From Dipteris shenzhenensis (taxonomy: Eukaryota), in the NCBI GenBank assembly GCA_047967505.1, contig CM106538.1: 64,000 nt of DNA; one strand, 5' to 3'. The position numbers were made by a program, and so were the translations under genes. How positions within the stretch are numbered: the stretch's first letter is position 1; the number at the start of each line of letters is the position of its first letter. Of this stretch, positions 1,063-63,846 are shown piece after piece. The notes under the pieces are model-generated. The model was given only the letters and a program-made list of their open reading frames with translations, was not told where the DNA came from and ran no database searches.

Positions 1063-4000
1063 CTCCCCCTCGAGCTCAATCCCAATTCCTACACACCAAG
1101 CATGTCTCTGAACTTGCACAGCTTCTCTACACCCAATGCCTTCATGAATATGTCAACTACCTGATCCTCTATGCTAACATAAACCAGATCAATAAAACCT
1201 ACCTGAACCTTCTCCTGCACATAGTGATAATGCATCTCAATGTGCTTTGTTCTAGCATGACAGACTAGGTTATTTGCCAAGTGTATACTGCTCATGTTGT
1301 CACAATAAATGACAATTGGCCCATCTATAGACTAATGCATATCATAAAGTAGCTTACACAACCAAGGTACCTCACATGCAGCCATTGCTGCACCCCTGTA
1401 CTCAGCCTCTGTGCTCGACAAGGCAACTATAGGCTATTTCTTACTACTCTAAGTGACTACAACACTCCCAAAAGAGAACACATATCCACTAGTAGATTGT
1501 CTATCAGACATACTACCAACCCAATCAGCATTAGTGTATCTATGCAACTGTATTTGAACCCCAGTCTCAAAAAATAGTCCATACTACAATGTGGACTTCA
1601 CATACCTCAGTATGCATCTAACCGCATCCAAACATGGTTTCCTTGGAACCTGCATAAACTGACTTATCAACCCAATAGCATACTAGCCTGGTAACAGTCA
1701 TATAAATCAAACTTCCTACTATGCGTCTGTACATACTAGGGTCTTCCAAAAGCTCACCTGCATCTATCCTCAACTTCACATTCTGCTCCAAAGGAACTGA
1801 AATAGGCTTACAGCTTGTCATCCCATGTTTGGATAGCATGTCCAATCCATGCTGCCTCTGCAAGAGCCATATCTGACTTGTGGATCTAATCACCTCAATT
1901 CCCAAGAAGTAACGTAGCTCTCCCAAATCCTTCATCTCAAACTTCTGCTTCAATAGCATTTTCACATGAAGGATATCTTCATCACTATCACTTGTGATGA
2001 TCAAATCATCAACATAAACGACAAGCAACATAATAGCTTTCTTTGTTTTTCTCACATAAAGTGAGAAATCTACCATGGAAATCTAAAAGCCAATAATGAC
2101 AAGATACTGTCCTATCTTGTCAGACCATGCTCTAGGTGCTTGCTTCAAGCCATACAAGGCTTTCTTCAACCTACAAACAAACTTAGGACGAACAGCATGC
2201 ACATAACTTGGTGGCCGCTCCATATAGACCTCTTCTTGCAAATCACCATGCAAGAAAGCATTCCTTACATCCATTTGATGTAAAGACCATCCCTTTGATG
2301 CAGTTATAACAATGACTGCTCTTCTGGTTGTCATCCTTGCAATCGGACTGAATGTTTCTTCATAATCAATGCCATATGTCTGTGCATAGCCCTTGACAAC
2401 TAATCTTGCCTTGTATTTGCTCACAGAACCATCTGCATTGTGCTTCACCTTATAGACCCACTTGCAGCCAATTGCATTCTTGTCTTTAGGCAAAGGCACC
2501 AATTCCCATGTAGCATTTGCTTCCAAGGCATATATTTCTTCATCCATGGCTTTCTCCCATTTTTCTTTTCCCATGGCTTGCTCAAAAGAAGTGGGTTCAG
2601 GTTCATGTATCACTTTGACCATATAGGCATAGTGAATGGCTGTAAATCCATCATATTTCAGCCTATCCATAGGATACTTAACTCTAGTAGACCTACGCAA
2701 AATAGGCTCACTACTAGGTGCTCTCAAAACATCCCTTGTCTTCCTTACTCCAGGTGTAACAATAGAAGGAATGCCCAACTCATCATCAAGGCTCTGTTTC
2801 TCGAGCCATTGGATTCACCATCCACATAAGAGTGACGTGCATTCACATCAACCATGGGCTGATCTACTTTCTCTTTTCCCTTTTGTGATACTTGCATACC
2901 AATATCTCCATTGCTTTGAGGAGATTCTCTTGATCTCAATCTGCTTGTCCATGGCAAAGTATTTGAACCACTGTTAGAGGATAGTACAGGTCCACTAATA
3001 TTTTATGAATGCTGCTATGAATTCTGTGCAGCATTACCATTTTGTGCATCTACATCATCAATCACATTTACTGGTTTATACCAGCTGCTCACCTCATAAA
3101 AAACAACATCTCTGCTCATTGTAAACTTACGAGTAGAAGGGTTATAGCATCTATACCCTTTCTGCTGCAGAGAATAACCAATAAAGATGCACTTCTTAGC
3201 TTTTGGATCCAACTTGGATCTCAACTCATCTGGCACATGAACATAGGCAATGCAACCAAAAACTTTCAAATGAGAAATATGTGGTTTCCTACCAGTATAC
3301 CTCTCCTCTAGCATCATGCCATGTATTGCTGCAGTGGGAGTCCTGTTCATTATGTAGACTGCTGTAGCAGCTACTTCAGCCCAATAATAATCTGGCAAGT
3401 CTTTTTCATTGAGCATGGCATGAGATACCTCTCTAATATGCCTGTTTTTCCTTTCTGCAAGTCCATTTTACTATGGGGTATGACTGCATGAATATTGCTA
3501 CTTTATGCCATGCTCCTACAGGAACCTTGCAAACTCATTTGAGAGGTACTCTCCCCCTCCATCTCTGACCTTAGACATTTTATTTGCAGGCTTGTTTCTT
3601 TCTCAACCATAGCTTTAAAAGCTTTGAAATGCCCAAACACTTCACTTTTCTTTTTCATAAAATATATCCAACCTTTTCTGCTGAGTCATCAATAAAAGTG
3701 GCAAAATAATGACAGCCTCCAACAAATGTAGATTTCATAGCCAAATTGGCAGGCTTCACATACCTTATGCATTTCTGCAACCTTGAACTTAGGCAATCCT
3801 ACAACAATATTTTGGGCTTGCATTAATTTAAGTCGTTGTACATTAACATGACCAATTGACCAATGCGTTTATGCCAGAACTCAATATCTGCAACTATAGC
3901 AGTCCCATGTGAAAACATTGCTGCACTCAATTCAGGCATGTCCGTATCCAACGTAAACATTATGCCCTTCTTCTTCCCTTTTGCTATCAAGCAACCTTTA

Positions 4001-30452: not shown

Positions 30453-33400
30453 TGTTACCTAGAAAAGAAATCAGGACAGGAGGCTAGACACTAAGCATGG
30501 CGATGCTCAAGGGCCATAGAGGAAAGAAGAACATGAGGGCAAAACATTATCATGGGAGGGGAAAAGGGATTAGAAGGGGAGGGAATGAAGAGGGGGACTA
30601 TGGCACAAGGGGAAAGGGAGAGGGGAAAGAGAAGCATGTACATGATGGGAGGAGGAATGTAAAGATGGAGACATCAAGGGAAGAGGGCCATACTTTATTT
30701 GAAAGGAAGGGAAGGGGGAAATCAAAGTACTAGCTAGGTGGCTTTACAAAAATGAGCGTGTTCCATCAAGGAATAGCCGCCTCCTTTTATAGCCAAGAGA
30801 GGGGGTCTCTCCCAATAAATGCATCCTCCCACATGCATGGTGTGTGTGGAAAAGTCTCCCATGTGGGCTAGGTGGTTACGCACTCTTAATTGTGTGCGAC
30901 AACCCTTTGCCTCATTTTTCCACATAAATCAAGCCCCATATCTCAAGTCTATGATACTCCCTTGGTCTCTTCCCAATTTTATAATACGTTCAAACATCTA
31001 GGAGGACAAGTGGAGGGTTGGCACAAGGAATCTTGCCACCTCATCCTATTTTCCCCATTATTTAACTTGCATCCTTGGACTATCTATACCCCCCCCATAT
31101 GGGCCTATCCTACATGGAGGGAGTAATCCAATATAATATCCATCTCCACCTATTTTATATTACTTCTCTCATGGACTTTAGGCTATATCTCACTAAATGC
31201 AAGCGTGGGACCGCCTAGGTGGAGGGGTGGCATATGGAGGAACCATGCCACCTTACATTTTATAATATTACTACCATGTATTATGTACAACACACCTTAT
31301 GGGTCCTCTTACGTGGAAGGGTGGCACATGGTCATGCCCTGCCACCTCAACCCTGGGCCCTATGGACACCATATTTTATTATACTATTGCCACACATACA
31401 TACACACATATTTATGCCTTTTTCCTTGGACAAATTTATCCATAACAGTTCTCCCCCCTAGGCAGGGAATGCACAGTATTTCCATGCCTGGGTCCATCAC
31501 GCACAAAGAAGGGCTTGAGGTAACGCTTGTTGATCACCTTCTTGCCATATGGCTCATGCAGCTCCCAAACTTGTACAGACCCATTGCTATGTTCCTTGAT
31601 GACTTTGTATGGACCGGTCCACAATGGAAGGAACTTCTTATCCATTTGGTGGTCCAAAATCTATGATCAAAGCATAGCACAACATCCCCCTCAGCAAAGT
31701 GTCTTTCCCATCCCTTGTGAATCTTAGCATCCAAGCAGGCCTTTTGTCGATTCTTTTGAATCTCTGTTTGATGTAGGGCAAGGCATCAGGTTTCATCTAG
31801 CTTCTCAAGTTGCACCAACCGGGCCTCTACATGTTCATCTTCTGTCATCCTTTGTTCTTGTGCCAATCTCAAAGCCGGAATCTCTATCTCTAGTGGTAAA
31901 ACGGCCTCAGTACCATACACCAACTCAAAAGAAGTGTGACCTGTAGACATTTTATGACTGATGTTGTAAGCCCATATGGCTTCCGTGACCTTTTGATCTG
32001 GCTCCTATTCCTTGTACCCATTTTTCCCATGGTTTTACAAAGGAGGCCATTAGTCCACTCCATTTGACCCCCCATGGATGCTGGATAATAGATGCTAGAA
32101 GTGCGATGATCAATATCCATGTGATCCATGAGTAACTCCATTGCTTCATTTAAGAATGGACTCCCATTGTCAGATACTATTTCCATGGGTGTCCCAAACC
32201 TTGTGTAGATACATTCAAATATGAAATGTGAAATTGCCTTACCATTTGCCGCGGGGAGGGCAATAGCTTCAGCCCACTTAGTGACATACTGAGTGGCTAC
32301 CAAAAGATACTTCTTTGTGCGGGCAATCATGGGTAGGGGCCCAACAAAATCTATTCCCCACTTTTGAAACGGATGGATGGACATCACTGGGTGATGTTGC
32401 CCAGGACGCAAATCCTTCCTACCAAAGAATTCGCATGGTTCACAAGTTTTGCAATGCATAGTGACATCCTTGAACAAGGTCGGCCAATAGTACCTAGCAT
32501 GTAAAATCTTCTTAGCTGTATAGTCACTGGCATAGTGGCCTCCACAAAATCCATCATGATAATGCTTCAATACCTTAGGTACTCCATCTGAATCAATGGC
32601 CCGTCTTAGTACCCCATCCATGCCTTGATGGTACAACACCCCATCAAAGAGAGTGTAGTGCCTACTATCTCTGTGGATCTTCTTTCTCTCATAGCTAGTA
32701 CTTTCTGGAGGAAAGGAGGAAGCAGTCAAAAACCTATAGATACCACCATACCATGGATCCCCAACTTCTATGGCCACTACAAGGGTTACATCAAGGCACT
32801 CCTCTAAATCAATCAAAGCATTCTTCAAGTTGGAACAACCCCCTTTTACAATTTTGAAAAAAAAATCATATTCTTGTAGAACTACCAACCATTTGGCCAA
32901 CCGGCCCATGGGATTTGGTGATTGAAGAACCTGCTTTGCAAGACCAGTGCTAATGAGTATAACAAAGGACTTTCCAACCACATAATGCTTAAATTTCTCA
33001 ATGCAGAACACCAACGACAAGGCATGCTTGTTAGCCTTTGAGTAGCATCATTCGGTATCGAGCAATTGTCGAGAAGCAAATCGAACAGGATACATAAACT
33101 GACCCTCCCCTTGCTGGAGAAGAATACCTGCTAGAGTGTGCTCACCAAACCCAGGATTGATATAGAAAAAGGTTGCAATGCATGCTTTCCAATGCAAGTA
33201 TTTTTGGTGGTTTTTGGGCTAAGGCAATGAAGACTGCAGTGCATGTGATCAATAGATCACCTAGTAAGAGTTTGGATGGTGGTATTCCTGAAGAGGCATG
33301 GAGTGGCAAGAAGCCCTCTTACTCTCATTTGCATATATTTAGGTGTGAGGCATATACACATGTGCCAAAAGAGCTTCGAAAGAAGCTAGATCCTAAGTAG

Positions 33401-36400
33401 GAAATGCATCTTTTTGGGTTATGGTGAAAGTGGAGAGATGGGCTATCATCTCTGGGATCCAAAAGCAAAGAAGATCATATACAGCCATGATGTAGTCTTC
33501 AATGAGAAGAAGATGCATAAGGCCCCCCATGAGGGATTTGGAAATGAGGAGAATCACTTTCTAGGATGTGAATCCACCTGCATATGTTGATAGACAGCAA
33601 GCTATCCATGCACCAAATGTGCAAGAAATGGTACCACCAAGTACTCCCACAAGTATACAATCAAGGGTAGATGATGGATCATCTATTGGTGGAAATGATG
33701 AGCCAAATATGGCTGATATGAAGGTGGGATATGAAGCTAAAATGCCTTTAAGAAGATCATCTAGAGTGTCTAGACCGCCTGATAGGTTTGTTCTAAAGGT
33801 AGACTATGTGATGCTTACTGATTGCAGGGAGCCTTCTTGATACAGAGAGGCTATGATGCGCAAGGATCAACGCAAGTGGGAGTATGCTATGCAATCAAAA
33901 ATGAGTTCACTTATGAAGAATAAGACTTGGGACTTGGTTTCTTTGTCACATGGAAAGAAAGCATTGCCATGTAAATGGGTTTACAAAATGAAGGTGACAT
34001 GTGATGATGTGCCTAGGTACAAGGCCTGTTTGATCGTCGCCAAAGGGTTCAAGCAAGAGAAAGGTGTGGACTTTGATGAGATATTCTCTCCGGTTGTGAA
34101 GATGACCACATTAGATGCATGCTTGGACTAGTGGCAGCTAAAGATATGGAGCTTATGCAGATGGATGTCAAGACAGCTTTCTTGCATGGGGATTTGCATG
34201 AGGAAATTTACATGGTGCAGCCGGAAGGCTTTGAAGACAAGGGCAAAGAGCATTTAGTTTGCAAGCTAAAGAAGAGTCTCTATGGTCTTAAGCAAGGGCC
34301 TAGAGAATGGTATCAGAAGTTTGATGCTTTCATTCGGTCCCAGGGTTTTAGGAGTGAAATTGATCACTACCTCTACACTAAAAGGACTAAGGATAATAGC
34401 CTGATAATCCTGGCACTATATTTGGATGATATGCTATTGGCTAGCAAGAATACTTATGAGCTAGATGCATTAAAGGCCAAGTTGCATGAGGCCTTTGATA
34501 TGAAGGATTTGGGACTTGTAAGTCATATTCTTGGTATGTGCATCACGCATGATCAGAGTAGGAAACTCCTTTGGCTTTCACAAAAGGAGTATGTCACAAA
34601 AGTATTGCAACATTTCAATATGGAGGGGGGGAAGGAAATGAGTACTCCATTGCCTCCATATGTGAAACTGAGTTATACAGATATTCCCAAATCAAATGAG
34701 GAGAGGGCCATGATGGCCAAGGTTCCTTATGCATCATCGGTTGGGAGTCTTATGTATGCTATGATAGCTACTAGACAAAAAATTGCATTTGCAGTGGGAG
34801 TTGTTAGCCGGTGTATGGCTAATCTAGGAAAGAGGCATTGGGAGGCAGTTAAGTGCATCATGAGGTGCATGAAGGGTACCAAGGAGATGTGCATCTGATT
34901 TGGTAGAGGAGACACGCATGTACTTGGGTACACAGATTCAGACTATGCAGGGCATGTGGATAGTAGGAGATCCACTTTTGGTTATGTGTTCACCTTTGCA
35001 GGTGGTGCAGTGTCATGGATGTCTTGCACACAGAGGTGCATTGCTTTGTCTACCACAGAGGCTGAGTATGTTGCAACCATAGAGGGTTGCAAGGAGGCTA
35101 TATGGCTTGATCGGCTAGTGGGAGATTTAGGGATTTATACAAGTGTACTGACATTGCATAGTGATTCCATGGGTGCTATTCAGCTAGCACGGAATCCGGT
35201 CTTTCATGCAAAGACCAAACACATTAAAGTCAGGTACCATTTCATCAAGGAGGTACTTGAGGACAAGCACATAGATCTTGTCAAGGTTCATACAGATGAT
35301 AACCCTGCAGATATGCTGACAAAGCGTCTACCTAGTCATTTGAGTATTGTCGTGTATTGATGGGCATTGGATAGTATGCTCACTAGTTGTTCTCCCTTAA
35401 AGACACATTGTCCTTTAAGTGGGAGGTTGTGGGGGTTAAAGGTCACTGTGCCTTTACCCCGGTTATGTACAATACTCAAACACATATATAAATGAATGAA
35501 AAAAGAAGATTAGGGTGTTTTGCACCCACCAAAACTTGTGTGGCTCTCTGTTTCTCTCTCTCCCTTTCCATTCTTGCTTCTGTTGAGAGCACTCTCATCG
35601 GGGTCAAGCTTGACACCCTTGAATGAGACAATATGTCCTGGTAACCTCCCTTGAGTGGCTCTAATGGTGCATTTCTCAGGGTTGAGATTGCCATTTGCAT
35701 CATTGACCCTTTGGAAGGCCAACCTAACCTTCATGATGTGCTCCTTACGTGATGAGAATATACAGAAATCATCTAAAAACACCTCCAAGAAATTCCCCAA
35801 ATAAGGAACAAACACCATTTGCATAAATCTTTGAAAGGTAACAAGAGCATTGGTGAGGCCAAATGGCATTACTTTGAATGCAAATGTCCCCCAGGGTGTG
35901 GCAAATATGGTTTTAAGCACATCCTCCTCAACAATTCTGATTTGATAAAACCTGGAGTAACCATCACAAAAAGTATACATCTCATGACCACTTACCTTCT
36001 TAAGAATGAGGTCTTGAAAGGGAAGAGGATGATGGTCCCTCTTGGTGGCTGCATTGAGTTTCTTATGGTCAATGCAAACCTGCCACTTGTTGTTTTTCTT
36101 TGGGGTGACTACCACTGGTGAAACCCATTCAATATTGTGAACCGGAACAATAAACCCATCTTCTACAAGTTTCTACAACTCTGAGCGCAAAGCATCAGTC
36201 TGTAGGGGGCCTAATCTCCAATACTTCTGAGCCACAGGCTTTGCATCAGGGCTTTAGCTCTATCTTGTGCTCTATGACAGCCACATGGCGAAGGTGGTCG
36301 TAGCTAGTAGCGAATAGGTCAGGGAAATATTTGAACATTTCTAGGAACTCGTCTTTCTCACTTGGAGTGAGGTATGGGGAAAGCATAGATTCAAGCTATT

Positions 36401-38279: not shown

Positions 38280-41200
38280 TGTTGAGATATCGAGCTCCAC
38301 TCGAGATATGCCAGGGTGACCGTTGGGTACTTATGTCACCGACTTGTTAGCTGGAGATGCGGTTGCTACACCGCCCATGAATAATAGCTGGATGACAGTT
38401 ATCCTTATCTACACTAGTTCGTGGCTCAGTTAGTATGCCACCTTAGTTAGTTGAGTTTGGTTTGAGACCCACATATAGGGTTCTTCTATTTCTTTGTACT
38501 AGAGTTCTTTTGGCTTTCATAACTAAGAAGAGGAAAACTGTTTTCAGCCTCCACCTTTGTGTGTATTCCCCCATTTGTGCATGTGAGAAAGCCTCAAGTG
38601 AGACTCCTTCCCTCTCTCCCACTATCTTCACATGGTATCAGAGCCTTGTTCGTGGTAAGGAGCTCAAGAAAGCAAGCCAAGTTCGTGGTGTCCTGGTAAG
38701 AGGACTAGTGTTGCTTTCCTATTTCGAGTTTGGGAGCAAATCTCTGCAGGTAGCACAGCCAGAAGTGCAGGAGTGCATTGTTTCAGATTGAGACACCCTT
38801 CGCGGTGTATACTGCGCTCTCGCCACCCCGCAAAGGGCGTCTCAATAATCAAAAAAATAAAGTGTGGTGAGAGCGCAGTATACGCTACGAGAGTGACTTT
38901 ATTTTTCTGATTTGAGGCCGTTTCGGGGCCCGTTTTGAAGGCGGAAGTTCTTCGCGGGCACTCAGAAAAAGGCCCTGTTTTTTGCTGTGCGACCACTGCA
39001 CGGCTAGTTGGTGGAAAGGTGCTGCACAAATTGCCTCGTATGCCTATGTGCAGAGATATTGGGAGTTGCAGATTCATGCCTGTTGCCTGCTGATGCAAAA
39101 TTGTCACTAGGAAGTGACTGTGTGGTGAGATACCACTTTCGTCAGTTTTGCAGATCTGCCCGTGTGAGGCAAAAAGCTGTGTTTTTTTGCAATGACAGAA
39201 TATTTTGCAGTGTTCTGTAATGGCATCTGATTCTCTTTCACAGATTGTCACTGAAAAGCTTGACAAGAACAACTTCCAGGCATGGAAGTTTAGAATGACG
39301 AATTTCTTGATGGGAAAAGGCTATTGGGAATTCATTACAGGAAATGAAGAAGAACCTGTTCTTCCTAATGTTCCCAGTCAACAGGAAATGCAGGCATTCA
39401 AAGGATGGCATGAGAGAGCCAGGAAAGTTATGTACTGGCTGTCTATCAGTATTTCGGACTCCATGATTGTGCATATTCAGGATGCAAATACGCCAAAGGA
39501 GGCATGGGATACTTTGGCAGAAATGTATAGCACATCTACGCAAGCCAGGAAAATGCAACTCAAACAGGAGTTGCACAATGTGCAGAGAGAAAATTTGAGC
39601 ATAAATGACTACCACATGAAAGTGAAGAAAATTGCAGATGCACTTGCTTCCATTGGGTCGCCAGTGGATGATGACGATTTGGTTTCTGTGACCTTGAATG
39701 GTCTAGGAAAGGATTATGCACAGTTCCGGACATCCATTGCCGTCCGTGAAAACTTTCCTGATTTTGAGGAGTTGATTGCTCTTCTAATTTCTAAAGAGCA
39801 GAGAAATGGGGGTGCATCTTCTTCAGCAGGAACTTCAAAAGAAACTGTCTTCTACTCAAATGCTAGCAGAGGTAGAGGCAGAGGTAGAGGAGGCCGATCT
39901 GCAGGGTGTGGTAGAAATCAGAATATGCAGCAAATGCAAGAAAACCAGTCCTATGCAGGAGGACGTGGGAACTCTAGAGGCAGGGGGAGCCAAAGAGGCC
40001 GTGGTGGATGGCAGAGAGGCCAAAATGCAAACAACAATATTGAATGCTACTATTGTGGCAAAATGGGTCATATGGCTAAGGACTACTATAAAAAGCAAAA
40101 TGACATTATGAATGGAAAATTGCAGCAAGGCAATTATGCATCCTCTAGTAGACAGGGTGATGACAGAAATGAGCATTTGTTTATGGTGCAGCATATGACA
40201 AATTCTGTAACAAGTGCAGAAGAAAGCAATGATGTGTGGTATGTTGACTCATGTGCGTCAAACCACATGACAGGTCACGCTGAATGGATGCAGGATGCAA
40301 GAAAAATGGAAAAACCAGGATTTGTGGAGACTGGTGATGATACTGCACATCCTATTGTGCAGATTGGCAAAATTCCTTTGTCTATGCAGGATGGGAAAAA
40401 GAAATACTTGTCTGATGTATTTCATGTCCCGAACATCACCAAGAACCTGGTTTCTGTTGGTCAGATGGTTGAGCAGGGCTTGCAGGTCAGATTTAATCCT
40501 CATGGATGCTTTGTTGAGGATATGAAAAATAATGGTCGCTTGATAGCAAAAGGAAAGAACAAGGGCAGGATGTTTACATTGGATGCAGACATGCCTGAAT
40601 TGAGTGCAGCAATGTTTGCACATGGGACCGGTGTAGTTGCAGATATTGATATCTGGCACAAACGCATTGGTCATGTTAATATACAGCGACTTAAATCAAT
40701 GCAAGCCCAAAATATTGTTGCAAAATTGCCAAAATTCAAGGTTGCAGAAATGCAAAAGATTTGTGAAGCCTGTCAATTTGGGAAACAAGCAAGGAAACCT
40801 TTTCCTAGGCATGTTCAAGAGAGTAAAAAGCCATTGGAATTAATCCACTATGATGTGTGGACTACAAAAGCTGCATCTATTGGAGGCTGTCACTATTTTG
40901 TCACATTTATTGATGACTTCAGCAGAAAACTGTGGGTGTATTTTATGAAAAAGAAAAGTGAAGTGTTTGGGCACTTCAAAGCTTTCAAAGCTATGGTTGA
41001 AAAAGAAACAGGCCTGCAAATAAAATGCCTAAGGTCAGATGGAGGGGGAGAGTACCTCTCAAATGAGTTTGCAAGGTTCTTGCAGGAGCATGGTATAAAG
41101 CAGCAATATTCATGCAGTCATACCCCACAGCAAAATGGAATTGCAGAAAGAAAAAACAGGCATATTGGAGAGGTATCTCGGGCTATGCTAAATGAAAAAG

Positions 41201-43938
41201 ATCTACCAGATTATTATTGGGCTGAAGCAGTTGCTACAGCAGTCTATATAATGAACAGGACTCCCACTGTAGCAATACATGGCATGACGCCAGAGGAGAT
41301 GTATACTGGTAGGAAACCAGATATTTCTCATTTGAAGATTTTTGGTTGCATTGCTTATGTCCATGTGCCAAATGAGTTGAGGTCCAAGTTGGATCCAAAA
41401 GCTGAGAAGTGCATCTTTATTGGTTATTCTCTGCAGCAGAAAGGGTATAGATGCTATAACCCTTCTACACGTAAGTTCACAGTGAGCAGAGATGTTGTTT
41501 TTGATGAGATGAGCAGCTGGTATAAACCAGTAAATGTGATGATTGATGTAGATGCACAAAATGGTAATGCTGCACAAAATGCACAGCAGTAATCACAAAA
41601 TATCAATGGACCTGGAGTGTCCTCTACCAGTGGTTCACATACTTCGTCATGGACAGGCAGATTGAGATCAGGAGAATCCCCTCAAAGCAATGCAGATAGT
41701 GGTACGCAGGTATCACGAAAAGGAAAAGAGAAGGTAGATCAGCCCATGTTTGATGTGAATGTAGGTCACTCTTATGTGGATCGTGAATCCAGTGGCTCAG
41801 AACAGAGCATTGATGATGAATTGGGTATTCCTTTTGTTGTTACACCTAGAGTAAGGAAGACCAGGGATGTTTTGAGAGCACCTGGAAGTGAGCCTATTTT
41901 GCGCAGGTCTACCAGGGTTAGGTATCCTGTGGATAGGCTGAAATATGATGGATTTACAGCCATTCACTATGCCTATATGGTCAAAGTGATACAGGAACCA
42001 GAACCCACTTCTTTTGAGCAAGCCATGGGAAATGAAAAATGGGAGAAAGCCATGGATGAAGAAATGGATGCCTTGGATGCTAATGCTACATGGGAATTGG
42101 TGCCTTTGCCTAAAGGCAAGAATGCAATTGGTTGTAAGTGGGTTTATAAGATTAAGCACAATGCAGATGGTTCTGTGAATAGATACAAGGCAAGATTAGT
42201 TGTCAAGGGGTATGCACAGACATATGGCATTGATTATGAAGAAACTTTCAGCCCGGTTGCAAGGATGGAAACCGTAAGAGCAGCCATTGCTATGGCTGCA
42301 TCAAAGGGATGGTCTTTACATCAGATGGATGTAAAGAATGCCTTCTTGCATGGTCTTTACATCAGATGGATGTAAAGAATGCCTTCTTGCATGGTGATTT
42401 GCAAGAAGAGGTCTTTATGGAGCAGCCAGCAGGTTATGTTCATGCTACTCATCCTGAGTTTGTTTGCAGGTTGAAGAAAGCCTTGTATGGCTTGAAGCAA
42501 GCACCTAGAGCATGGTCTGACAAGATAGGACATTATCTTGTCACTATTGGCTTTCAGATTTCCAAGGCAGATTTCTCACTCTATGTGAGAAAAACAGAGA
42601 AAGGGATTATGCTGCTGGTCATTTATGTTGATGATTTGATCATCACAGGTGATAGTGATGAAGATATCCTTCATGTGAAAATGCTATTGAGGCAGAAGTT
42701 TGAGATGAAGGATTTGGGAGAGCTGCGTTATTTCTTGGGCATTGAGGTGATTAGATCACTAAGTGGGATACAGCTCTTACAGAGGCAGTATGGATTGGAC
42801 ATGCTGTCCAAATATGGGATGACAGGCTGTAAGCCTATTTCAGTTCCTTTGGAGCAGAATGTGAAGCTGAGCACAGATGCAGGTGAGCTTCTGGAAGACC
42901 CTACTATGTACAGACGTATAGTAGGAAGTTTGATTTACATGACTATTACCAGGCCAGATTTGAGCTATGCTGTTGGGTTGGTAAGTCAGTTTATGCAGGC
43001 TCCAAGGAAACCACATTTGGATGCGGCTAGACGCATACTCAGGTATGTGAAGTCCACATTGCAGTATGGACTATTTTATGAGGCTGGGGTTCACATACAG
43101 TTGCATGGATACACTGATGCTGATTGGGCTGGTAGTATTTCTAATAGACGATCTACCAGTGGATATGTGTTCTCTTTTGGGAGTGCTGCAGTCACTTGGA
43201 GCAGCAAGAAACAGCCTACAATTGCCTTGTCGAGCACATAGGCTGAGTACAGGGGTGCAGCAATGGCTGCATGTGAGGTAGCTTGGTTGCATAAGCTACT
43301 CTATGATATGCATCAGTCCACAGATGGGCCGGTTGTCATTTATTGTGACAACATGAGCAGTATACACTTGGCAAAGAACCTAGTCTTTCATGCTAGAACA
43401 AAGCACATTGAGGTGCATTATCACTATGTGCGGGAGAAGGTTTTACTAGGTCTTATTGATCTAGTTTATGTCAGCACAGAGGATCAGGTAGCTGACATAT
43501 TCACGAAAGCATTGGGCGCAGAGAAGCTGCGCAAGTTCAGAGACCTGCTTGTTGTGTAGGATTTGGGATTGAGCTCGAGGGGGAGTGTTGAGATATCGAG
43601 CTCCACTCGAGATATGCCAGGGTGACCGTTGGGTACTTATGTCACCGACTTGTTAGCTGGAGATGCGGTTGGTACACCGCCCATGAATAATAGTTGGATG
43701 ACAGCTATCCTTATCTACACTAGTTCGTGGCTCAGTTAATATGCCACCTTAGTTAGTTGAGTTTGGTTTGAGACCCACATATAGGGTTCTTCTATTTCTT
43801 TGTACTTGAGTTCTTTTGGCTTACACAACTAAGAAGAGGAAAACTGTTTTCAGCCTCCACCTTTGTGTGTATTCCCCCATTTGTGATTGTGAGAAAGCCG
43901 CAAGTGAGACTCCTTCCCTCTCTCCCACTATCTTCACA
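38280..43938 (+). mobile_element. Ty1/copia family A copy 4 (full length, nested in gag of copy 3)
   Basis: 353-bp LTRs at 38280-38632 and 43586-43938. Perfect TSD gaatt. PBS at 38633-38644; PPT gagggggag at 43577-43585. Confidence 0.97.
39220..43625 (+). pseudogene. gag-pol polyprotein of copia A copy 4, nearly intact
   Basis: Open from ATG 39220 to a stop at 41590-41592. A 41-bp duplication frameshifts RT at 42351; further stops at 43239 and 43557. The inferred natural stop lies inside the 3' LTR. Confidence 0.93.
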
Positions 43939-44597
43939 GAATTTACTTATGGGAAAAGGCTATTGGGAGTTCATTACAGGAAATGAAGAAGAACCAATTC
44001 TTCCTAATGTTCCCAATCAACAAGAAATGCAGGCATTTAAAGGATGGCATGAGAGAGCCAAAAAAGTTATGTACTGACTGTCTATTAGTATTTCAGATTC
44101 TATGATTGTGCATATTTAGGATGCAAGTACGCCAAAGCAGGCATGGGATACTTTGGCAAAAATGTACATCACAAATACACAAGCTAGGAAAATGTAGCTC
44201 AAGCAGGAGTTGCACAATGTGCAGAGAGAAAATATGAGCATCAATGACTACCACATGAAGGTGAAGAAAATTGCAGATGCACTTGCTTCCATTGGGTCGC
44301 CAGTGGAAGATGATGATTTAGTTTTTGTGACCTTGAATGGTCTAGGAAAGGATTATGCACAGTTTCGGACATCCATTGCCGTTCGTGAAAAATTTCCTGA
44401 TTTTGAGGAGTTGTTTGCTCTTTTAATTTCTGAAGAGCAGAGAAATGGTGGTCAATCTTCTTCAGGAGGAACTTCAAAAGAAATTGTCTTCTACTCAAAT
44501 GCTGAAAGAGGTAGAGGCAGAGGTAGAGCAGGCCGATCTGGAGGCCGTGGTAGAAATAAGAATACACAGGCTGATTTGATTCTCATCTTGTTTGCAG

Positions 44598-44920
44598 CAT
44601 ATTCTCTATGCACACGGTCCATGTTTTGTACAAAATTGGGGTCCTTTGTCAATTTGGAATACACAAGGCATGGAGAAGTTGCACTATAGAGCCATGGTAG
44701 CCTACTTCAAGAACTCAAGGCATGGTGGTGTGTCACTCATAGCAATGCATTGCATGAGATGTTCGACTAGTTTTTTAGATGTCTACTAGGAAGAACTTTG
44801 AAGTATGAAAAGGCAAAGGCATTAGAACTTGCAAAAGCAGTTCAAATTGTATCAAAGAATAGAAGGCATAGTGCTTGGAAAGCATCCATAGGGAGTCAAG
44901 GAGTCGCATATGGGTTGTAA
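44598..44920 (+). pseudogene. Putative C-terminal exon of a RAG1/Transib/CMC-like DDE transposase
   Basis: Preceded by ctgat...ttgtttgcag (branch point and acceptor). Reads HILYAHGPCFVQNWGPLSIWNTQGMEKLHYRAMVAYFKNSRHGG, with a frameshift and stop afterwards. Confidence 0.5.
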
Positions 44921-45296
44921 GCTAGAGTGAGAGAAGGGAGCAGATGGGTCCAACCACCAATAGAAGCTATGGTGTAATTGTATACAAATATTTATTTAAT
45001 ATATTGTTTATTTTGACCACAATTTGTGTACTCACTCTTTAATATCTTGCTTATTTTGACCACAATTTTTGTACTCACACGACGTTGGGGAAAGTGGGGA
45101 CATGGTGAAGGAGGGGGGGGCATGGGGCAGGGCAAGGGGAGGGGTGGAGTGGTAGCAAGGGTGGGGGGAGGGGGGGATGGGTGTATGGGGGAGGGCGACG
45201 GGTGTGGGCGAGGCAAGTAGGGGGAGGGCAAGCGGGCAGAGGGCAACGAGGGTGGGGGGGGTTGGAGGGGTTAGGGTGGGGGTAGGGGGCACGATG

Positions 45297-45368
45297 AAAC
45301 CCTAAATGTAATTAAAAGGGATGTTAAAACATGATGGGCCCTTATAAAAAATTAAAAAGAACCCTAAC
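45297..45368 (+). promoter_or_regulatory. Telo-box / site II / TATA promoter-like cluster
   Basis: AAACCCTAA at 45297, TGGGCC at 45335, TATAAAA at 45343 and AACCCTAA at 45360, just upstream of ATG 45381. Confidence 0.45.
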
Positions 45369-45380
45369 TCTCATTATTCA

Positions 45381-45557
45381 ATGGCAAGAGTGAAGAACAC
45401 TACTAGACCCACTGGACGCCACCTCCACCCTTCCTCCTCTAGCTCCACCACCTCCATGGCATCTGCGCACACAAACCTATTCAGGTCTGATGGCACCTCC
45501 CCTGACTCTTGTAAGCCCTCCCCCAACTCCCCCAAGTCCCATGAGCCCACTCCCTAG
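45381..45557 (+). pseudogene. 58-codon Ser/Pro-rich ORF with a histone H3/CENH3-like N-terminus, cut by a copia insertion
   Basis: MARVKNTTRPTGRHLHPSSSSSTTS...; below the ORF-track length cut-off. Copia copy 5 starts 20 bp after the stop. Confidence 0.35.
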
Positions 45558-45576
45558 TCTCCTGAGCCTTCCTCTC

Positions 45577-48500
45577 TGTTGAGATATTGAGCTCCACTCA
45601 TGATATGCTAGGGTGACCGTTGTGCATTTATGTCACTGACTTGTTAGCCGCAAACGTGATTGGTACACCACCCATGACTAAAAGCTAGATGACAGTTATC
45701 CTTATGTACTCTAGTTCATGGCTTAGTTAGTATGCCATCTTAGTTAGCTGAGTTTGGTTTGAGACCCACATATAGGGTTCTTCTATTTCTTTGTACAAGA
45801 GTTCTTTTGGCTTTTCACAACTAAGAAGAGAAAAACTGTTTTCAGCCTCCACTTCTATGTGTTTTCCCCCATTGTGTATGTGAGAAAGCCACAAGTGAGA
45901 CTCCTTCCTTCTCTCCCACTATCTTCACATGGTATTAGAGCCTGGTTCAGTGTAAGGAGCTCAAGAAAGCAAACCAAGTTCACGGTATTCTGGTAAGAGG
46001 ACCAGTGTTGCTTTCCTTTTTTGAGTTTGGGAGCAAATCTCTGCAAGTAGCATAGCCGAAAAGTGCAAGAGTGCATTGTCTCAGATTGAGATGCCCTTCA
46101 TGGTGTGGTAAGAGGGCATTATATGCTGCAGGCAAGGGCAAAGCCCTTGGTAACTTTATTTTTCTGATTCGAGGTCATTGCGGGGCCCATTTTGGAGGCA
46201 GAAGTTCTTCACAAGCACTGAGAAAAAGGCCCTGTTTTTGTTGTGTGACCACTACTCTGTAGGTCAGTGAAAAGTTGCCACAAAAATTTCATCCTTATTG
46301 GGAGTTGCAGAATCATCCTTATTGCCTGTTGATGCAAAATCGTCACTAGGAAATGACTGTGTGGTCAAATACCACTTTTGTCAGTTTTGCAGGTTTGCCC
46401 TTGTGAGGCAGAAGCTATGTTTTTTGCAGTGACAGAATGTTTTGTAGTGTTCTGTAATGGCGTCTGATTCTCTGTCATAGATTGTCACTGAAAAGCTTGA
46501 CAAGAACAACTTCAAGGCATGGAAGTTTAGAATGACGAATTTCCTTATGGGAAAAGGCTATTGGGAGTTCATTATAGGAAATGAAGAAAAACCAGTTCTT
46601 CCCAATGTTCCCAATCAACAGGAAATGCAGGCATTTAAAGGATGGCATGAGAGAGCTAGAAAAGTTATGTACTGGCTGTCTATCAGTATTTCAGATTCTA
46701 TGATTGTGCATATTCAGGATGAAAGTATGCCAAAAGATGCATGGGATACTTTGGCAAAAATGTATAGCACAAATACGCAAGCCAAGAAAATGCAGCTCAA
46801 GCAGGAGTTGCACAATGTGCAAAGAAAAAATATGAGCATCAACGACTACCACATGAAGGTGAAGAAAATTGCAGATGCACTTGCTTCCATTGGGTCGCCA
46901 GTGAAAGATGATGATTTAGTTTCTGTGACCTTGAATGGTCTAGGAAAGGACTGTGCATAGTTATGGACATCCATTGCCGTCCGTGAAAAATTTCCTGATT
47001 TTGAGGAGTTCTTTTCTCTTCTAATTCCTGAAGAGCAGAGAAATGGTGGTGCATCTTCTTCAAGAGGAACTTCAAAAGAAACTGTCTTCTACTCAAATGC
47101 TAGAAGAGGTAGAGGAAGAGGTAGAGGAGGCCGATCTGGAGGCCATGGTAGAAATCAGAATATGCAGCAAACTCAAGAAAACTAGTCCTATGGAGGAGGA
47201 CGTGGTAACTCCAGAGGCAGGGGGAGCCAAAGAGGTTGTGGTGGATGGCAAAGAGGCCAAAATGCAAACAGCAATGTTAAATGCTACTATTGTGGTAAAA
47301 TGGGTCATATGGCTAAAGACTGCTACAAAAAGCAGAATGACATTATGAATGGAAAATTGCAGCAAGGCAATTATGCATCCTCTAGTAGATATTGGGAGTT
47401 AAAAAATCATCCTTATTGCCTGTTGATGCAAAATCATCACTAGGAAGTGACAGTGTGGTTAAATACCACTTTCGTCAGTTTTGCAGATTTGCCCTTGTGA
47501 GGAAAAAGCTGTGTTTTTTGCAGTGATAGAATATTTTGCAGTGTTCTGTAATGGCGTCTGATTCTCTTTCACAGATTGTCACTGAAAAGCTTGACAAGAA
47601 TAACTTCCAAGCATGGAAGTTTAGAATGACGAATTTCCTTATGGGAAAAGGCTATTGGGAGTTCATTACAGGAAATGAAGAAGAACCAATTCTTCCTAAT
47701 GTTCCCAATCAACAGGAAATGCAGGCATTTAAAGGATGGCATGAGAGAGCCGGAAAAGTTATGTACTGACTGTCTATCAGTATTTCAGATTCTATGATTG
47801 TGCATATTCAGGATGCAAGTACGCCAAAGCAGGCATGGGATACTTTGGCAAAAATGTACATCACAAATACACAAGCTAGGAAAATGTAGCTCAAGCAGGA
47901 GTTGCACAATGTGCGGAGAGAAAATATGAGCATCAATGACTACCACATGAAGGTGAAGAAAATTGCAAATGCACGTGCTTCCATTGGGTCGCGAGTGGAA
48001 GACGATGATTTAGTCTTTGTGACCTTGAATGGTCTAGGAAAGGATTATGCACAGTTCGAGACATCCATTGCCATTCGTGAAAAATTTCCTGATTGTGAGG
48101 AGTTGTTTGCTCTCTTAATTTCCGAAGAGCAGAGAAATGGTGGTGCATCTTCTTCAGGAGGAACTTCAAAAGAAATTGTCTTCTACTCAAATGCTGAAAG
48201 AGGTAGAGGCAGAAGTAGAGTAGGCCGATCTGGACGCCATGGTAGAAATCAAAATACGCATCAAACTCAAGAAAACCAGTCTTATGGAGGAGGACGTGGT
48301 CACTATAGAGGTAGGGGAGCCAAAGAGGTCGTGGTGGATGGCAGAGAGGCCAAAATGCAAAAAGCAATGTTGAGTGCTACTACTGTGGTAAAATGGGTCA
48401 TATGGCTAAAGAGTGCTACAAAAAGGAGAATGACGTTATGAATGGAAAATTGCAGCAAGGCAATTATCCATCTTCTAGTAGACAGGGTGATGATAGAAAT

Positions 48501-51500
48501 GAGCATTTGTTTATGGTGCAGCACATGACCAATTCTGTGACAAGTGTAGAAGAAAGTAATGATGTGTGGTATGTTGACTCAGGTGCATCAAACAACATGA
48601 TAGGTCATGCAAAATGGATGCAGGATGCAAGGAAAATAGAAAGACCTGGATTTGTGGAGACTGGTGATGATACTGCACATCCCATTGTGCAAATTGGTAA
48701 AATTCCTTTGTCTATGCAGGATGGGAAAAAGAAATACCTGTTTGATGTATTTCATGTCCCGAATATCACCAAGAAAAATAATGGTCGCTTGATAGCAAAA
48801 GGAAAGAAGAAGGGCATGATGTTTACGTTGGATGTGGACATGCCTGAATTGAGTGTAGCAATGTTTGCACATGGGACCAGTGTAGTTGTAGATATTGATA
48901 TCTGGCATAAACGCATTGGTCATGTTAATGTACAGTGACTTAAATCAATGCAAGCCCAAAACATTGTTACAGGATTGCCTAAATTCAAGGTTGCAGAAAT
49001 GCATAAGGTATGTGAAGCCTGTCAATTTGGAAAATAGGCAAGGAAACCATTTCCTAGACATGTTCAAGAGAGTAAGAAGCCATTGGAATTAATCCAGTCT
49101 GATGTGTGAACTCCTAAAACTGCATCTATTGGAGGCTGTCATTATTTTATCACTTTTATTGATGACTATAGTAGAAAAGTTTGGGTGTATTTTATAAAAA
49201 AGAAAAGTGAAGTGTTTGGGCATTTCAAAGCTTTTAAACCTATGGTTGAAAAAGAAACAGGCCTGTAAATAAAATGCCTAAGGTCAGATGGAGGGGGAGA
49301 GTACCTCCCAAATGAGTTTGCAAGGCTCCTACAGAAGCATGGCATAAAGCAGCAATATTCATGCAGTCATACCCAACAGCAAAATGGACTTGCAGAAAGG
49401 AAAAACAAGCATATTGGAGAGGTATATTGGGCCATGGTAAATGAAAAAGACCTACCAGATTATTATTGGGCTGAAGCAATTGCTACAGTAGTTTACATAA
49501 TGAACAGGACTCCCACTATAGCAACACATGGCATGACGCCAGAGGAGATGTATATTGGTAGGAAACCGGATATTTCTCATTTGAAAATTTTTGGTTGCAT
49601 TGCCTATGTTCATGTGCCAGATGAGTTGAGGTCCAAGTTGGATCTAAAAGCTGAGAAGTGCATCTTTATTGGCTATTCTCTACAACAGAAAGGGTATAGA
49701 TGCTATAACCACTCTACTCGTAAGTTTACTTTGAGCAGAGATGCTATTTTTGATGAGATGAGCAGCTGGTATAAACCAGTAAATGTGATTGATGATATAG
49801 ATGCACAAAATGGTATTGCTGCATAGAACTCACAGCAGCAATTACAAAGTATTAGTGGACCTACAGTGTCCTCTAGCAGTGGTTCACATACTTCACCATG
49901 GACAGGCAGATTGAGATCATGAGAATCTCCTCAAAGCAATGTAGATAGTGGTATGCAGGTATCACAAAAAGGAAAAGAGAAGGTAGATCAACCCATGTTT
50001 GATGTGAATGCAGGTCACTCTTATGTGGATGGTGAATCAAGTGGCTCAGAATAGAGCATTGATGATGAGTTGGGTATTCCTTCTATTGTTACACCTAGAG
50101 TAAGGAAGACCAGGGATGTTTTGAGAGCACCTGGAAGTGAGCCTATTTTGCATAGGTCTACCAGAGCTAGGTATCCTGTGGATAGGCTAAAATATGATGG
50201 AATTACAACCATTCACTATGCATATATGGTCAAAGTAATACAGGAACCAAAACCCACTTCTTTTGAGCAAGCCATGGGAAAAGAAAAATGGGAGAAGCCA
50301 TGGATGAAGAAATGGATGCCTTGGAAGAAAATGCTACATGGGAATTGGTGCCTTTGCCTAAAGACAAGAATGGAATTGGCTATAAGTGGGTTTATAAGGT
50401 GAAGCACAATGTAGATGGTTTTGTGAGTAGATACAAGGCAAGATTAGTTGTCAAGGGGTATGCACAGACATATGGCATTGATTATGAAGAAACATTCAGT
50501 CCGGTTGCAAGGATGGCAACCGTAAGAGTAGTCATTGCTATGGCTGCATCAAAGGTCTTTGCATCAGATGGACGTAAAGAATGCCTTCTTGCATGGTGAT
50601 TTGCAAGAAGAGGTCTTTATGGAGCAGCCAGCAGGTTATGTTCATGCTGTTCATCCTGAGTTTGTTTGTCGGTTGAAGAAAGCCTTGTATGGCTTGAAGC
50701 AAGTAGCTAGAGCATGGTCTGACAAGATAGGACAATATCTTGTCACTATTGGCTTGAAGATTTCCAAGGCAGATTTCTCACTTTATGTGAGAAAAATAGA
50801 GAAAAGTATTATGTTGCTTGTCATTTATGTTGATGATTTGGTCATCACAGGTGATAGTGATGAAGATATCCTTCATGTGAAAATGCTATTGAAGCAGAAG
50901 TTTGAGATGAAGGATTTGGGAGAGTTGCGTTATTTCTTGGGCATTGAGGTGATTAGATCACCAAGTGGGATACAGCTCTTGTAGAGGCAGTATGGATTGG
51001 ACATGCTGTCCAAATATGGGATGATGGCTATAAGCCTATCTCAGTTCCTTTGGAGCAGAATGTGAAGCTGAGCGCAGATGCAGGTGAGCTTCTGGAAGAC
51101 CCTACTATGTACAGATGCATAGTAGGAAGTTTGATTTATATGACTATTACCAAGCCAGATTTGAGCTATGTTGTTGGATTGGTAAGTCAATTTATGTAGG
51201 CTCCAAGGAAACTGCATTTGGATGCGGCTAGACACATACTCAGGTATGTGAAGTCCACATTGCAGTATGGACTATTTTATGAGACTAGGGTTCAGACACA
51301 GTTGCATGGATACAATGATGCTGATTGGGCTAGTAGTATTTCTAATAGACGATCTACCAGTGGATATGTGCTCTTTTGGGAGTGCTGCAGTCACTTGGAA
51401 TAGCGAGAAATAGCCTACAGTTGCCTTGTGAAGCACAGAGGCTGAGTACAAGGGTGCAGCAATGGCTGCATGTGAGGTAGCTTGGTTGCATAAGCTACTT

Positions 51501-61860: not shown

Positions 61861-63846
61861 ATGGAGACCTTTGGAACAATGAATCTTGCAGTTACATGGC
61901 TGCCAGATTGGGTTTTGTATTGCCTCATCGGAGGAGCCTTTGTTGTGGGTTTGCTGGTCGTTTACGTCTGTTACCCCATCTGGGCAGTGAAGCACATCCC
62001 TTGCCCTCCCTATGCTCTCCCCGGGTTGGGTCATCTTCTTCTTTTCTATAAGCTCAAGGAGGAGCTCTTTGTGAAGCTCGCCCGGGCCTACGGAGCCGTC
62101 TACAGGTCTGTCTCCCAAACTTTGTTGTAGGCGGGTCTGTCAACGGCCTTGCTCCGAGATTTTGTTGTGGAGTATCTATTGCCGGTTTTTGCTCCACTGA
62201 CCCGAGCTTTTCCCTGGAGTACAGATTGCACATCGGACGGCAGCCCTATGTTATCATTGCCGATGCGGAACTGTGCAAGGAACTGTGCATCAAGCAGTTC
62301 AAATCTGCCACGGACCGTAATCCTCCGCCTTACATCGAGACTGTCCCGGTTCTTAACCGTGGTCTCTTTTTCACCAGGTAATTGAAACCTCATCGTCTGC
62401 CAAGATTTCTGTACACTCGCCTTCGGGTGTGATTCTGCTTTTTGCTTATCCTTACTCGGCTCGTCGCACAGAGGCAACAAATGGTCATCTTTGCGCAACA
62501 TCCAGCTCCCTTTCTACCATTCTGATCAGATGCGCAAATACGTACCATTGATGAGCCGTATCATCGACAACCTGTTGACTGAGCTGGCTACTAAGACAGA
62601 GAGCGAAGACGTGGAAGTTTGCGACTATCTGATGAGGATGACGGTAGACGTCATTGGAGAGGCTGCATTCGGCACACAATTCGGATGTCTCAAGGGACAG
62701 AAATCGGGAGACCCTGAAAGTTTGGAATCAAAATTAATTCTTTGTGCACAGAGATTTATCGCTGCACTCCGGTTGGACGAAAAAGCTCCATTAAGCACAA
62801 TCGTTGGAGTCTTCTTGCCTGTCTTACAGCAACCAGTACGAAAGTTTCTGGCTATGTTCCCCTCGACAGGTGATGGGGATCAAGAAATGTGCGCTCTCAA
62901 TCTGCAAAACGTGTTGAGTCAAATCGTTTCACAGAGAAAGCGGCAGGTTGGAAACGAGAACCGGATCGATGGATTGTCCTTGCTACTAAACGCAAAGAAG
63001 GACGCACCACAACTCCTTACAGACGATTACGTAGGTGGGCTGACTTTCGAGATGCTTCTGACCGGGTCGGAGACCACCTCAACAACGCTCTCTTTTGCCC
63101 TGTATCTAATCTCTGGCCATCCGGAGGTTGAACGCAAGCTGGTGAAAGAAATAGATGCTTTTGGGCCACACGATCGCAAACCCACCTATGAGGATCTCGA
63201 CCGGTTTCCCTACGTGGAACAGGTATGGCGCGGAGCTCTAGATCGTAAGACTCTTCCATGGAATTCCTATCCGAAACTGATTTACTGCACAATTGGAAGC
63301 GTAGGTAATAAAAGAAGCGCTACGATACTACACCCCGTCACCGATAATTGCTCGTGAGATATTGAAAGACATGGAGCTAGGCGGTTACCGTCTTAAGAAG
63401 GTACGAGATGCAGCAAAGCTGGCAAACACAGTCGGATTTCTAAGATCAGATCAGCCATGTTTTGGTATAGGTATCTTTGTGATCCGCTCAATCATGCTTG
63501 TTATGTGGTGCTATGACAGGGCACTGCGGTGTGGCTGGCGATGAACGCCGTGTTGTGGGATCCGAAACATTTTCCAGAGCCAGATAAGTTCAGGCCAGAG
63601 AGATTCGATCCGAACTGCGAGGAAAACAAGGCGAGGCACCCATATGCATTCAGCCCTTTTGGGATGGGGCCTCGGATCTGCATAGGCTATAAGTTCTCGA
63701 TGCAGGAAGCCAAGATGGCATTGATAATGCTGTACCAAAGGTTCACGTTCGAGCATTCTCCTGCAATGGAGAAGCCTCTAGCCATGCACTTCGGCATTAT
63801 TCGTCGCCCTAAGTTTGGTGTGAGGTTGCGAGTTCATCCACGTTGA
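61861..63846 (+). CDS. CYP711A: Cytochrome P450, CYP711 family (MAX1-like); exons 61861-62105, 62225-62377, 62472-63222, 63305-63400, 63520-63846 (523 aa)
   Basis: All four introns are GT-AG and splice into one open frame of 1572 nt. N-terminal membrane anchor. MAX1-like segment [25 protein letters not shown]...GLFFTR. I-helix TGSETT, ExxR (KEALR), PERF and heme motif FGMGPRICIG. Confidence 0.92.

Follow-up and report, generated by a model that had tools for sequence, protein, structure and literature searches.

A decayed transposase exon in the Dipteris shenzhenensis genome and its relatives with a predicted RAG1/Transib-like fold

The window analyzed here is a stretch of 64,000 nucleotides of contig CM106538.1 from the Dipteris shenzhenensis assembly GCA_047967505.1. 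At positions 44569-45576, it carries a 1008-bp relic, a single copy within the window by blastn, that contains the terminal exon of a transposase gene plus a short same-strand second open reading frame (ORF2) starting 404 nt past the transposase stop (Table 1). Part of the exon lies in a stop-to-stop ORF of 69 residues at 44580-44789 (+), which reads FSSCLQ followed by HILYAHGPCFVQNWGPLSIWNTQGMEKLHYRAMVAYFKNSRHGG... (in one piece, FSSCLQHILYAHGPCFVQNWGPLSIWNTQGMEKLHYRAMVAYFKNSRHGG...). The splice acceptor gtttgcag occupies 44590-44597, and the exon proper opens with a His codon at 44598; the LQ of the ORF is the translated acceptor (ttgcag, 44592-44597). A preliminary description of this DNA had placed the peptide HILYAH.. 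after a good splice acceptor, and we read it in exactly the same way. The span given there, 44570-44920, marks the right locus, but the exon starts later and its homology runs on to a stop codon at 44975-44977.

The exon is broken. The reading frame is lost after ...RHGG (44729), and homology resumes at 44732 in another frame, where the continuation runs from ..THSNALHEMFD*FFRCLLGRTL.. (the asterisk is a stop) to ..EGSRWVQPP..; the C-terminal motif ..R.GS.W.. is conserved in relatives of this exon. The homologous end is the TAA at 44975-44977, the original stop. Two premature stops precede it: a TAG at 44768-44770, in place of the Trp of the relatives, and a TAA at 44918-44920. With one frameshift and two premature stops along homology that reaches 44977, this is therefore a remnant of about 126 codons with three disabling changes and with about 126 alignable residues instead of the 45 or so that had been considered informative.

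A chance ORF was ruled out by the phmmer E values. Searched against 1.84 billion proteins, the 69-residue ORF had 57 matches at E ≤ 1e-3, of which 13 reached E ≤ 1e-10; the top match was 73% identical (E = 1.2e-19). The window thus holds a transposase gene's last exon in a decayed state. The window peptide alone had no match in Pfam or the PDB. Fifty-five homologues were aligned with the window sequence (alignment A1; P0043 and P0044 were dropped as repetitive matches in multiple stretches). The consensus of A1 is QHILxxHGPWFxxxYGSLxxWSTQGMEKSHY...HGGG...WYR, and the alignment also confirms the frame-shifted continuation of the window copy.

Longer members of the family were then available for comparison. 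The homologue P0018 led to two N-terminal halves, P0058 and P0059 (no longer relatives of P0018 were found at E ≤ 1e-3), and 31 loci with colinear relatives were identified on metagenome contigs. We combined 52 family sequences into a profile, A2, with residues numbered after locus L022, and this retrieved 220 proteins at E ≤ 1e-3. Among the 120 of these matches that were listed, none had a precomputed Pfam family, and only one name points to an organism, namely, that of a hypothetical protein of Klebsormidium nitens, which is a streptophyte alga; nine other names read just “hypothetical protein.” Full-length members (P0060 and P0061) have about 900 residues. In P0060, residues 1 to 240 lie beyond the part that matches RAG1 and comprise a block of conserved sequence (..DLW.DGS.YP.DP..) as well as one helix, ~65 residues long, at 94-158.

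The relatives also explain the acceptor. Both ..THYM, the end of the preceding exon segment, and HIL.. could be placed at 27 loci. An insert of 65 to 107 nt separates them at 22 loci and is bounded by GT..AG in 19 of these cases, mostly ending in ..GCAG, while the two are joined directly in L013, L022, L025, L026, and L030. Because 22 of 27 relatives carry an insert exactly there, the TGCAG/CAT junction of the window is the acceptor of the last intron, which is conserved and in phase 0. The proposal that this is a remnant of an intron-containing transposase gene was thus borne out.

We examined residue conservation in A2, counting for each position only the rows with a residue in that column. 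The Asp-Asp-Glu (DDE) triad is conserved (D43 in 11/11, D140 in 22/22, and E418 in 32/33 rows), as are a C-x2-C motif (C160, 23/23; C163, 25/26) and an H-x4-H motif (H394, 34/36; H399, 32/35). H219 (27/27), C221 (29/29), and H224 (28/28) are further conserved positions. The C-x2-C cysteines follow an Asp at +20 and +23, the H-x4-H comes next, and the Glu lies 19 residues on; this order and these spacings equal those of RAG1 within one residue. For plant CACTA transposases, the preliminary description gives H-x3-H. The window copy keeps H-x4-H (HILYAH) and the Glu position of QGME, and both catalytic Asp residues and C-x2-C belong to upstream parts of the gene that are gone. Since the exons with these residues are lost and the remaining exon is broken, the window copy is inert and is only a marker of past activity in the D. 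shenzhenensis genome.

Sequence comparison suggests a weak but specific link between the family and RAG1. In a phmmer search of PDB sequences with P0042, all 15 distinct sequences matched were RAG1 (best E = 0.0041). The segment GEGHVTHYMHILYAHGPWLIKEHGSLGVWQCQGMEKSH of P0042 aligned by HMMER without gaps over 38 residues to RAG1 928-965, with the family His pair on RAG1 937 and 942 and the Glu on 962. In RAG1, H937 and H942 are zinc ligands and E962 is the third catalytic residue. A gapless alignment to RAG1 had been proposed for the window peptide itself; HMMER reproduced it at that modest E value, but only through this homologue. Pfam RAG1 was touched at E ≤ 1 by 5 of the 56 members of A1 (best E = 0.0032), and no other Pfam family was touched by more than one. 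The protein-language-model neighbors listed for P0059 and for P0061 373-900 were RAG1/Transib-type clusters at 0.95 to 0.96, and no CACTA cluster was among the neighbors listed.

Predicted structures point in the same direction. The AlphaFold2 model of the uninterrupted 527-residue ORF at L022 (3-1583, A2 alignment) had a mean predicted local distance difference test (pLDDT) value of 86.3 and a predicted template modeling (pTM) score of 0.81. Foldseek returned 48 PDB matches at E ≤ 1e-3, and those listed were RAG1, amphioxus RAGL (BbRAGL), and HzTransib only. The best match had an E of 1e-9 and a template modeling (TM) score of 0.53 over ~530 columns, with P element transposase (6e-3) and Hermes (2.5e-2) as the runners-up. 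With VIA-align, model residues 1-477 were placed on RAG1 533-1008 (4wwx_B; Z = 18.0, 398 residues, root mean square deviation [rmsd] 4.4), followed by HzTransib (6pqx_A; Z = 17.3) and BbRAGL (Z = 17.0); the next folds were P element (9.9), ISCth4 (7.6), and Hermes (7.0). The model of full-length P0060 (898 residues, 103-row alignment A3; pLDDT 82.0, pTM 0.69) gave Z values of 19 to 20.1 against RAG1 459-1008 (~460 residues, rmsd 4.3 to 4.7) and 18.5 against HzTransib 21-478, nearly the whole chain (408 residues). Across both models, BbRAGL scored 17.0 to 18.3 and the next fold 9.8 to 9.9.

The models have the architecture of RAG1, namely, a predicted RNase H fold, an inserted ZnC2/ZnH2 module, and a C-terminal domain. 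As far as predicted structures go, the fold link between the family and RAG1/Transib is strong. The likeness to RAG1/Transib (4wwx, 6dbo, and 6pqx; RAGL 6b40) covers the fold of the whole core and the order D, D, C-x2-C, H-x4-H, E, whereas identity is 12 to 17% and the family adds the N-terminal block and a long coiled coil. A comparison with RAG1 and Transib structures had been suggested in the preliminary description. Based on the fold and motif matches, the RAG1/Transib-like reading of the peptide therefore holds at the level of fold and motif, but membership in Transib was not borne out, with weak sequence matches, Pfam scores below the cut-off, family profiles that reached no RAG1 or Transib chain in the PDB, and neither element ends nor target duplications recovered. 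Thus, the original observation is confirmed, and its interpretation is partly supported.

We next considered ORF2, the start of which resembles the N-terminal tail of histone H3. The pattern M[AGVSTP]R[TVIAS]K has a single match in the 64-kb window on both strands, and this is the start of ORF2; shuffles of 44978-45576 (599 nt) gave a match in 82 of 20,000 cases. No histone fold is left in the window before the long terminal repeat (LTR) of the next retrotransposon, since ORF2 ends after 58 codons and the LTR begins at 45577; only the tail-like start MARVK.. remains. In the relatives L004, L005, L022, and L026, an H3-tail-like ORF follows the transposase on the same strand, starting 111 to 285 nt after the stop. 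It runs on into a histone fold in three of them (Pfam Histone, PF00125, E = 7.3e-34 for L022 and 5.6e-26 for L026; tblastn, E = 2e-20 for L005). L022 and L026 align as a single block over both genes with 67% DNA identity. ORF2 is probably the first exon of the H3-like second gene of the element. A second H3-tail-like start, MVRVKKTPTR.., is present in L022 at 2713-2856 (+), 3' of the complete H3-like gene and reaching the contig end.

The spacer between the two genes has features of its own. The tandem 41-nt repeats just after the transposase stop are 93% alike, and each contains a near-palindrome, CACAATTTGTG or CACAATTTTTG. A G-rich tract of repeated AGGGTGGGGG-like units (approximately 45080-45290) and then AAACCCTAA lie directly upstream of the MARVK ORF. 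AAACCCTAA resembles telomere repeats, a type of motif that occurs in plant promoters, and 45080-45305 may be where the promoter of the second gene lies.

Elsewhere in the family, convergent accessory ORFs take the place of the H3-like gene. Type A is found in L002, L006, L009, L010, L016/L018, L019/L024, and L020/L021; it is a conserved two-exon ORF of ~550 to 600 residues, tail to tail with the transposase (in L009, 3290-3814 and 3822-5120, both on the minus strand). Type B, found in L023 (693-1886, −), L028 (845-1798, −), and L025 (1373-2650, −), is a different conserved ORF of ~320 to 430 residues, placed after the transposase of the QHV[IV]V[KR]H branch. Pfam searches with type A and B ORFs gave nothing beyond noise at E ≤ 0.5. 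A convergent layout is that described for RAG1L and RAG2L in RAGL transposons. Type A parallels this layout in arrangement alone, and a RAG2-like nature is not implied. Unlike RAG1, the family showed no RAG2-like gene, its accessory genes being the H3-like gene or these Pfam-less convergent ORFs.

When a tree was built from the last exon (43 rows, 130 columns), P0001 and P0002 formed a group with the window copy (support, 89/71), which adjoins the L004/L005/L011 clade, which has the H3-like gene (support, 83/80). The three accessory types need 3 changes on this tree, and as few were seen in 0 of 200 label shuffles. As kin share labels, the shuffle result shows clustering and not coevolution. 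A full-text literature search gave no published description of a histone H3 gene in a DNA transposon; because Repbase Reports and most subscription journals lie outside that search, this is weak evidence of absence. On the favored reading, the H3-like protein would mark or shield the chromatin of the element or would give the transposase a private chromatin handle.

To classify the family, we compared it with known systems. In Kojima 2025 (PMC12730594), the CMCT clade consists of EnSpm/CACTA, Mirage, Chapaev, Transib, Plavaka, ESTA, Lanisha, and RAG1, with 5'-CA..TG-3' termini and target-site duplications (TSDs) of 2 to 5 bp. The same text gives the C(2)C and H(3-4)H motifs as common to the whole clade, and it ties another member, ESTA, to RAG1 by HHpred. 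Our family has the DDE triad, C(2)C, and H-x4-H of this clade. Since C(2)C and H(3-4)H are clade-wide, the H-x4-H spacing alone does not single out Transib. It had been argued from this spacing and QGME that the peptide fits RAG1/Transib/Chapaev-type transposases better than plant CACTA; no CACTA Pfam family was matched.

From these data, we propose, with a probability of roughly 0.85, that 44569-45576 is what remains, inactive and truncated at both ends, of a cut-and-paste DNA transposon from a CMCT family that is nearest to RAG1/Transib among solved structures, is not canonical Transib, and may be Lanisha or a sister of it. The relic would comprise the tail of the final intron, the final exon of the transposase gene, the spacer, and the start of the H3-like second gene. 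An intact transposase would have about 900 residues, with the N-terminal conserved block, the long coiled coil, and a RAG1/Transib-like core. This core would be an RNase-H-type DDE domain interrupted by a Cys2/His2 zinc module and followed by a C-terminal helical domain, and the window exon would supply the zinc-binding His pair, the Glu of QGME as third catalytic acid, and the C-terminal domain. If an intact enzyme acts like RAG1 and HzTransib, it would bind as a dimer to the ends of the element and nick the element boundary with its D-D-E metal site. Attack on the opposite strand would then leave hairpins on the flanking DNA and release the element, and the excised element would be integrated.

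Within this proposal, the family could already have a name. The Lanisha superfamily is said to have been proposed by Maumus, McDaniel, and Carey in Repbase Reports in 2020. Carey et al. 2021 (PMC8245031) describe Lanisha as a cut-and-paste superfamily that was new at the time and came from the moss Ceratodon purpureus, and PMC12730594 places it with EnSpm, Mirage, Chapaev, Transib, and RAG1 as sharing C(2)C and H(3-4)H. Our family has those motifs, lacks a Pfam family, and includes one named protein, from a streptophyte alga. By description, both are green-plant cut-and-paste lineages with CMCT motifs outside Pfam-type classifications. The link is one of elimination. We regard it as somewhat less than an even chance that the family is the Lanisha superfamily and the window a dead Lanisha copy, which would refine our proposal.

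We consider it improbable that the family belongs to the Transib superfamily proper, which would mean CAC ends that resemble recombination signal sequences (RSS), 5-bp target duplications, and a position nested among Transib transposases. HzTransib is matched over nearly its whole chain, H-x4-H is present with the Glu 19 residues past the second His, all PDB sequence matches of P0042 (15/15) are RAG1, and the language-model neighbors include arthropod and cnidarian clusters, partly with RAG1 domains. However, the family profiles do not reach Transib/RAG1 chains, the added N-terminal region of ~240 residues with its coiled coil and the accessory genes set the family apart, and no CAC ends or 5-bp TSD were recovered from the loci examined. 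The Glu motif also differs. Tao et al. 2022 (PMC9435367) reported 39 Transib-like proteins from plant assemblies, and those printed in the supplement are canonical, on contigs of 2.8 to 4.5 kb, with the motif ..PIGxLSEEAQExRNK... Our family has ..W[SN]TQGMEKSH.. instead, together with its extra domains, and is not the same family as these proteins (PMC9435367).

These reports bear on novelty as well. The preliminary description held that the group is not normally listed for land plants, a statement weakened by the Transib-like proteins from plant assemblies (PMC9435367) and by the moss Lanisha (PMC8245031). A RAG1 relative in a plant assembly is therefore not new in itself. Besides RepeatMasker-type mentions, our search of the literature on Transib in plants gave only Tao et al. 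2022 and the Lanisha papers, with Repbase Reports and most subscription journals outside its reach.

In a different proposal, the family arose by domestication into a host gene whose RAG1-like product serves the cell, and the window holds a pseudogene copy of it. Long intact ORFs and a conserved intron occur in many relatives, terminal inverted repeats (TIRs) were not found in seven contigs, and the accessory genes could be plain neighboring host genes. Set against this, 18 of the 31 loci come from one assembly (contig names JAEIGA..) and are widely divergent, and two locus pairs are 82 to 86% identical in DNA. Stops interrupt some copies (that in the window, L003, and the L026 H3 gene), the type of accessory gene tracks the transposase tree in the manner expected of genes that move as a unit, and the window copy sits in a heap of retrotransposons. 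Because of this diversity within one assembly, the two similar pairs, the broken copies, the branch-wise gene content, and the setting, the evidence favors a mobile element over a host gene, and we find the host gene very unlikely.

Several results weigh against our proposal of a RAG1/Transib-like cut-and-paste element. No TIRs were present around the gene in L006, L008, L009, L010, L016, L019, or L021 (3.3 to 6.1 kb), contigs that are probably shorter than the element, and no TSD was seen. The window copy has lost both element ends. With no TIRs or TSDs recovered, we infer mobility from the other evidence. For the three members listed, matches to Pfam RAG1 covered profile positions 553-593 and scored 14.7 to 16.1 bits, below the cut-off of 25; four transposase ORFs and 12 long proteins gave no Pfam RAG1 match. 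Profiles A1, A2, and A3 found no RAG1/Transib chain among PDB sequences at E ≤ 10 (A2 and A3 gave one unrelated weak row each, and A1 gave none). Significant sequence similarity to RAG1/Transib was not found, the match of P0042 (E = 0.0041) being the only single-sequence match. Finally, structures of CACTA, Chapaev, Mirage, and Lanisha are unsolved, and such families might match RAG1 about equally; with CACTA unsolved, fold matches therefore cannot separate the family from it.

Plant CACTA/EnSpm elements resemble the family in being multigene CMCT elements with introns and DDE and C2/H2 motifs. A divergent remnant of this ordinary CMC group of plants, which like RAG1 and Transib has C(2)C and H(3-4)H (PMC12730594) and for which no structure is solved, is highly unlikely, as Transposase_21, DUF4218, and other CACTA Pfam families were unmatched at E ≤ 1 in the 56 A1 members and 12 long proteins and at E ≤ 0.1 in further family proteins scanned, including the four transposase ORFs, the spacing is H-x4-H and not H-x3-H, and the language-model neighbors listed included no CACTA cluster.

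The surroundings of the relic are those of a nested, truncated Ty1/copia array, which extends over 39196-43559, 45577-50000, and elsewhere in the window. On the left, copia homology stops at 44568 by blastn against other copia copies in the window, and the break falls inside the intron, 29 nt ahead of the acceptor. On the right, the LTR start at 45577 has 9 other copies in the window with 89 to 96% identity (blastn), and the direct repeats 43586-43822 and 45577-45813 are 88% identical. No other pieces of the element were found elsewhere in the 64-kb window by tblastn with 13 relatives and the L022 H3 protein. In all, the window holds at least 10 instances of this copia LTR start, and one copia copy has an open gag-integrase frame of 798 codons. 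In a comparison with sequencing runs, the nine rows listed contained only 4 to 12% of the sampled words, with no RNA run among them. Gypsy-type pieces lie at 31893-33047 and 35513-36172 (−). A cytochrome P450 ORF at 62386-63354 (+; Pfam p450, E = 8.7e-35) is the sole clearly non-transposon coding sequence seen in the window.

Table 1. Features of the relic and its two boundaries (positions are those of the window).
Feature	Position	Strand	Basis
Left boundary, outside the element: truncated Ty1/copia gag fragment	44198-44568	+	Pfam Retrotran_gag_2, E = 1.7e-10
Intron tail, last 29 nt, phase 0	44569-44597	+	Pyrimidine-rich tract ending in acceptor TGCAG
Last exon, part 1, in frame	44598-44729	+	HILYAH (H-x4-H), GPLSIW, QGME, ...KNSRHGG
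Frameshift site	44730-44731	+	Two bases left where relatives have a Gly codon; tblastn segments switch frame
Last exon, part 2	44732-44977	+	tblastn with P0002, P0010, P0012, P0025, and P0036 reaches 44950-44962
Spacer, transposase stop to ORF2	44978-45380	+	41-nt direct repeats, G-rich tract, AAACCCTAA at 45297-45305
Direct repeats, 2 x 41 nt	44995-45035, 45038-45078	+	Repeat search within the window
ORF2, 58 codons, MARVKNTTRP..	45381-45557	+	Start resembles the histone H3 N-terminal tail
Right boundary, outside the element: start of the next copia LTR	45577-45650	+	blastn, direct repeat

RAG1, the assembler of antibody genes, descends from Transib-like transposons, and the range and diversity of RAG1 relatives shape ideas on its origin. 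The relic leads to a large family of transposases with a predicted RAG1 fold and no family annotation, with many members in environmental eukaryotic DNA. Tentatively, and with the odds against it, this could be an undescribed RAG1-fold transposon lineage in streptophytes, perhaps much older, with sublineages that each have their own accessory gene and with a private H3 variant in the branch of the window. If so, the H3 variant could be deposited on the element or could help the transposase in reading or masking chromatin, and such a partnership would mirror that of RAG2, which reads the H3 tail for RAG1. If distinct from Lanisha, the family would add a green-lineage branch to the RAG1/Transib/CACTA clade and would offer a natural test case for the use of chromatin by such transposases.

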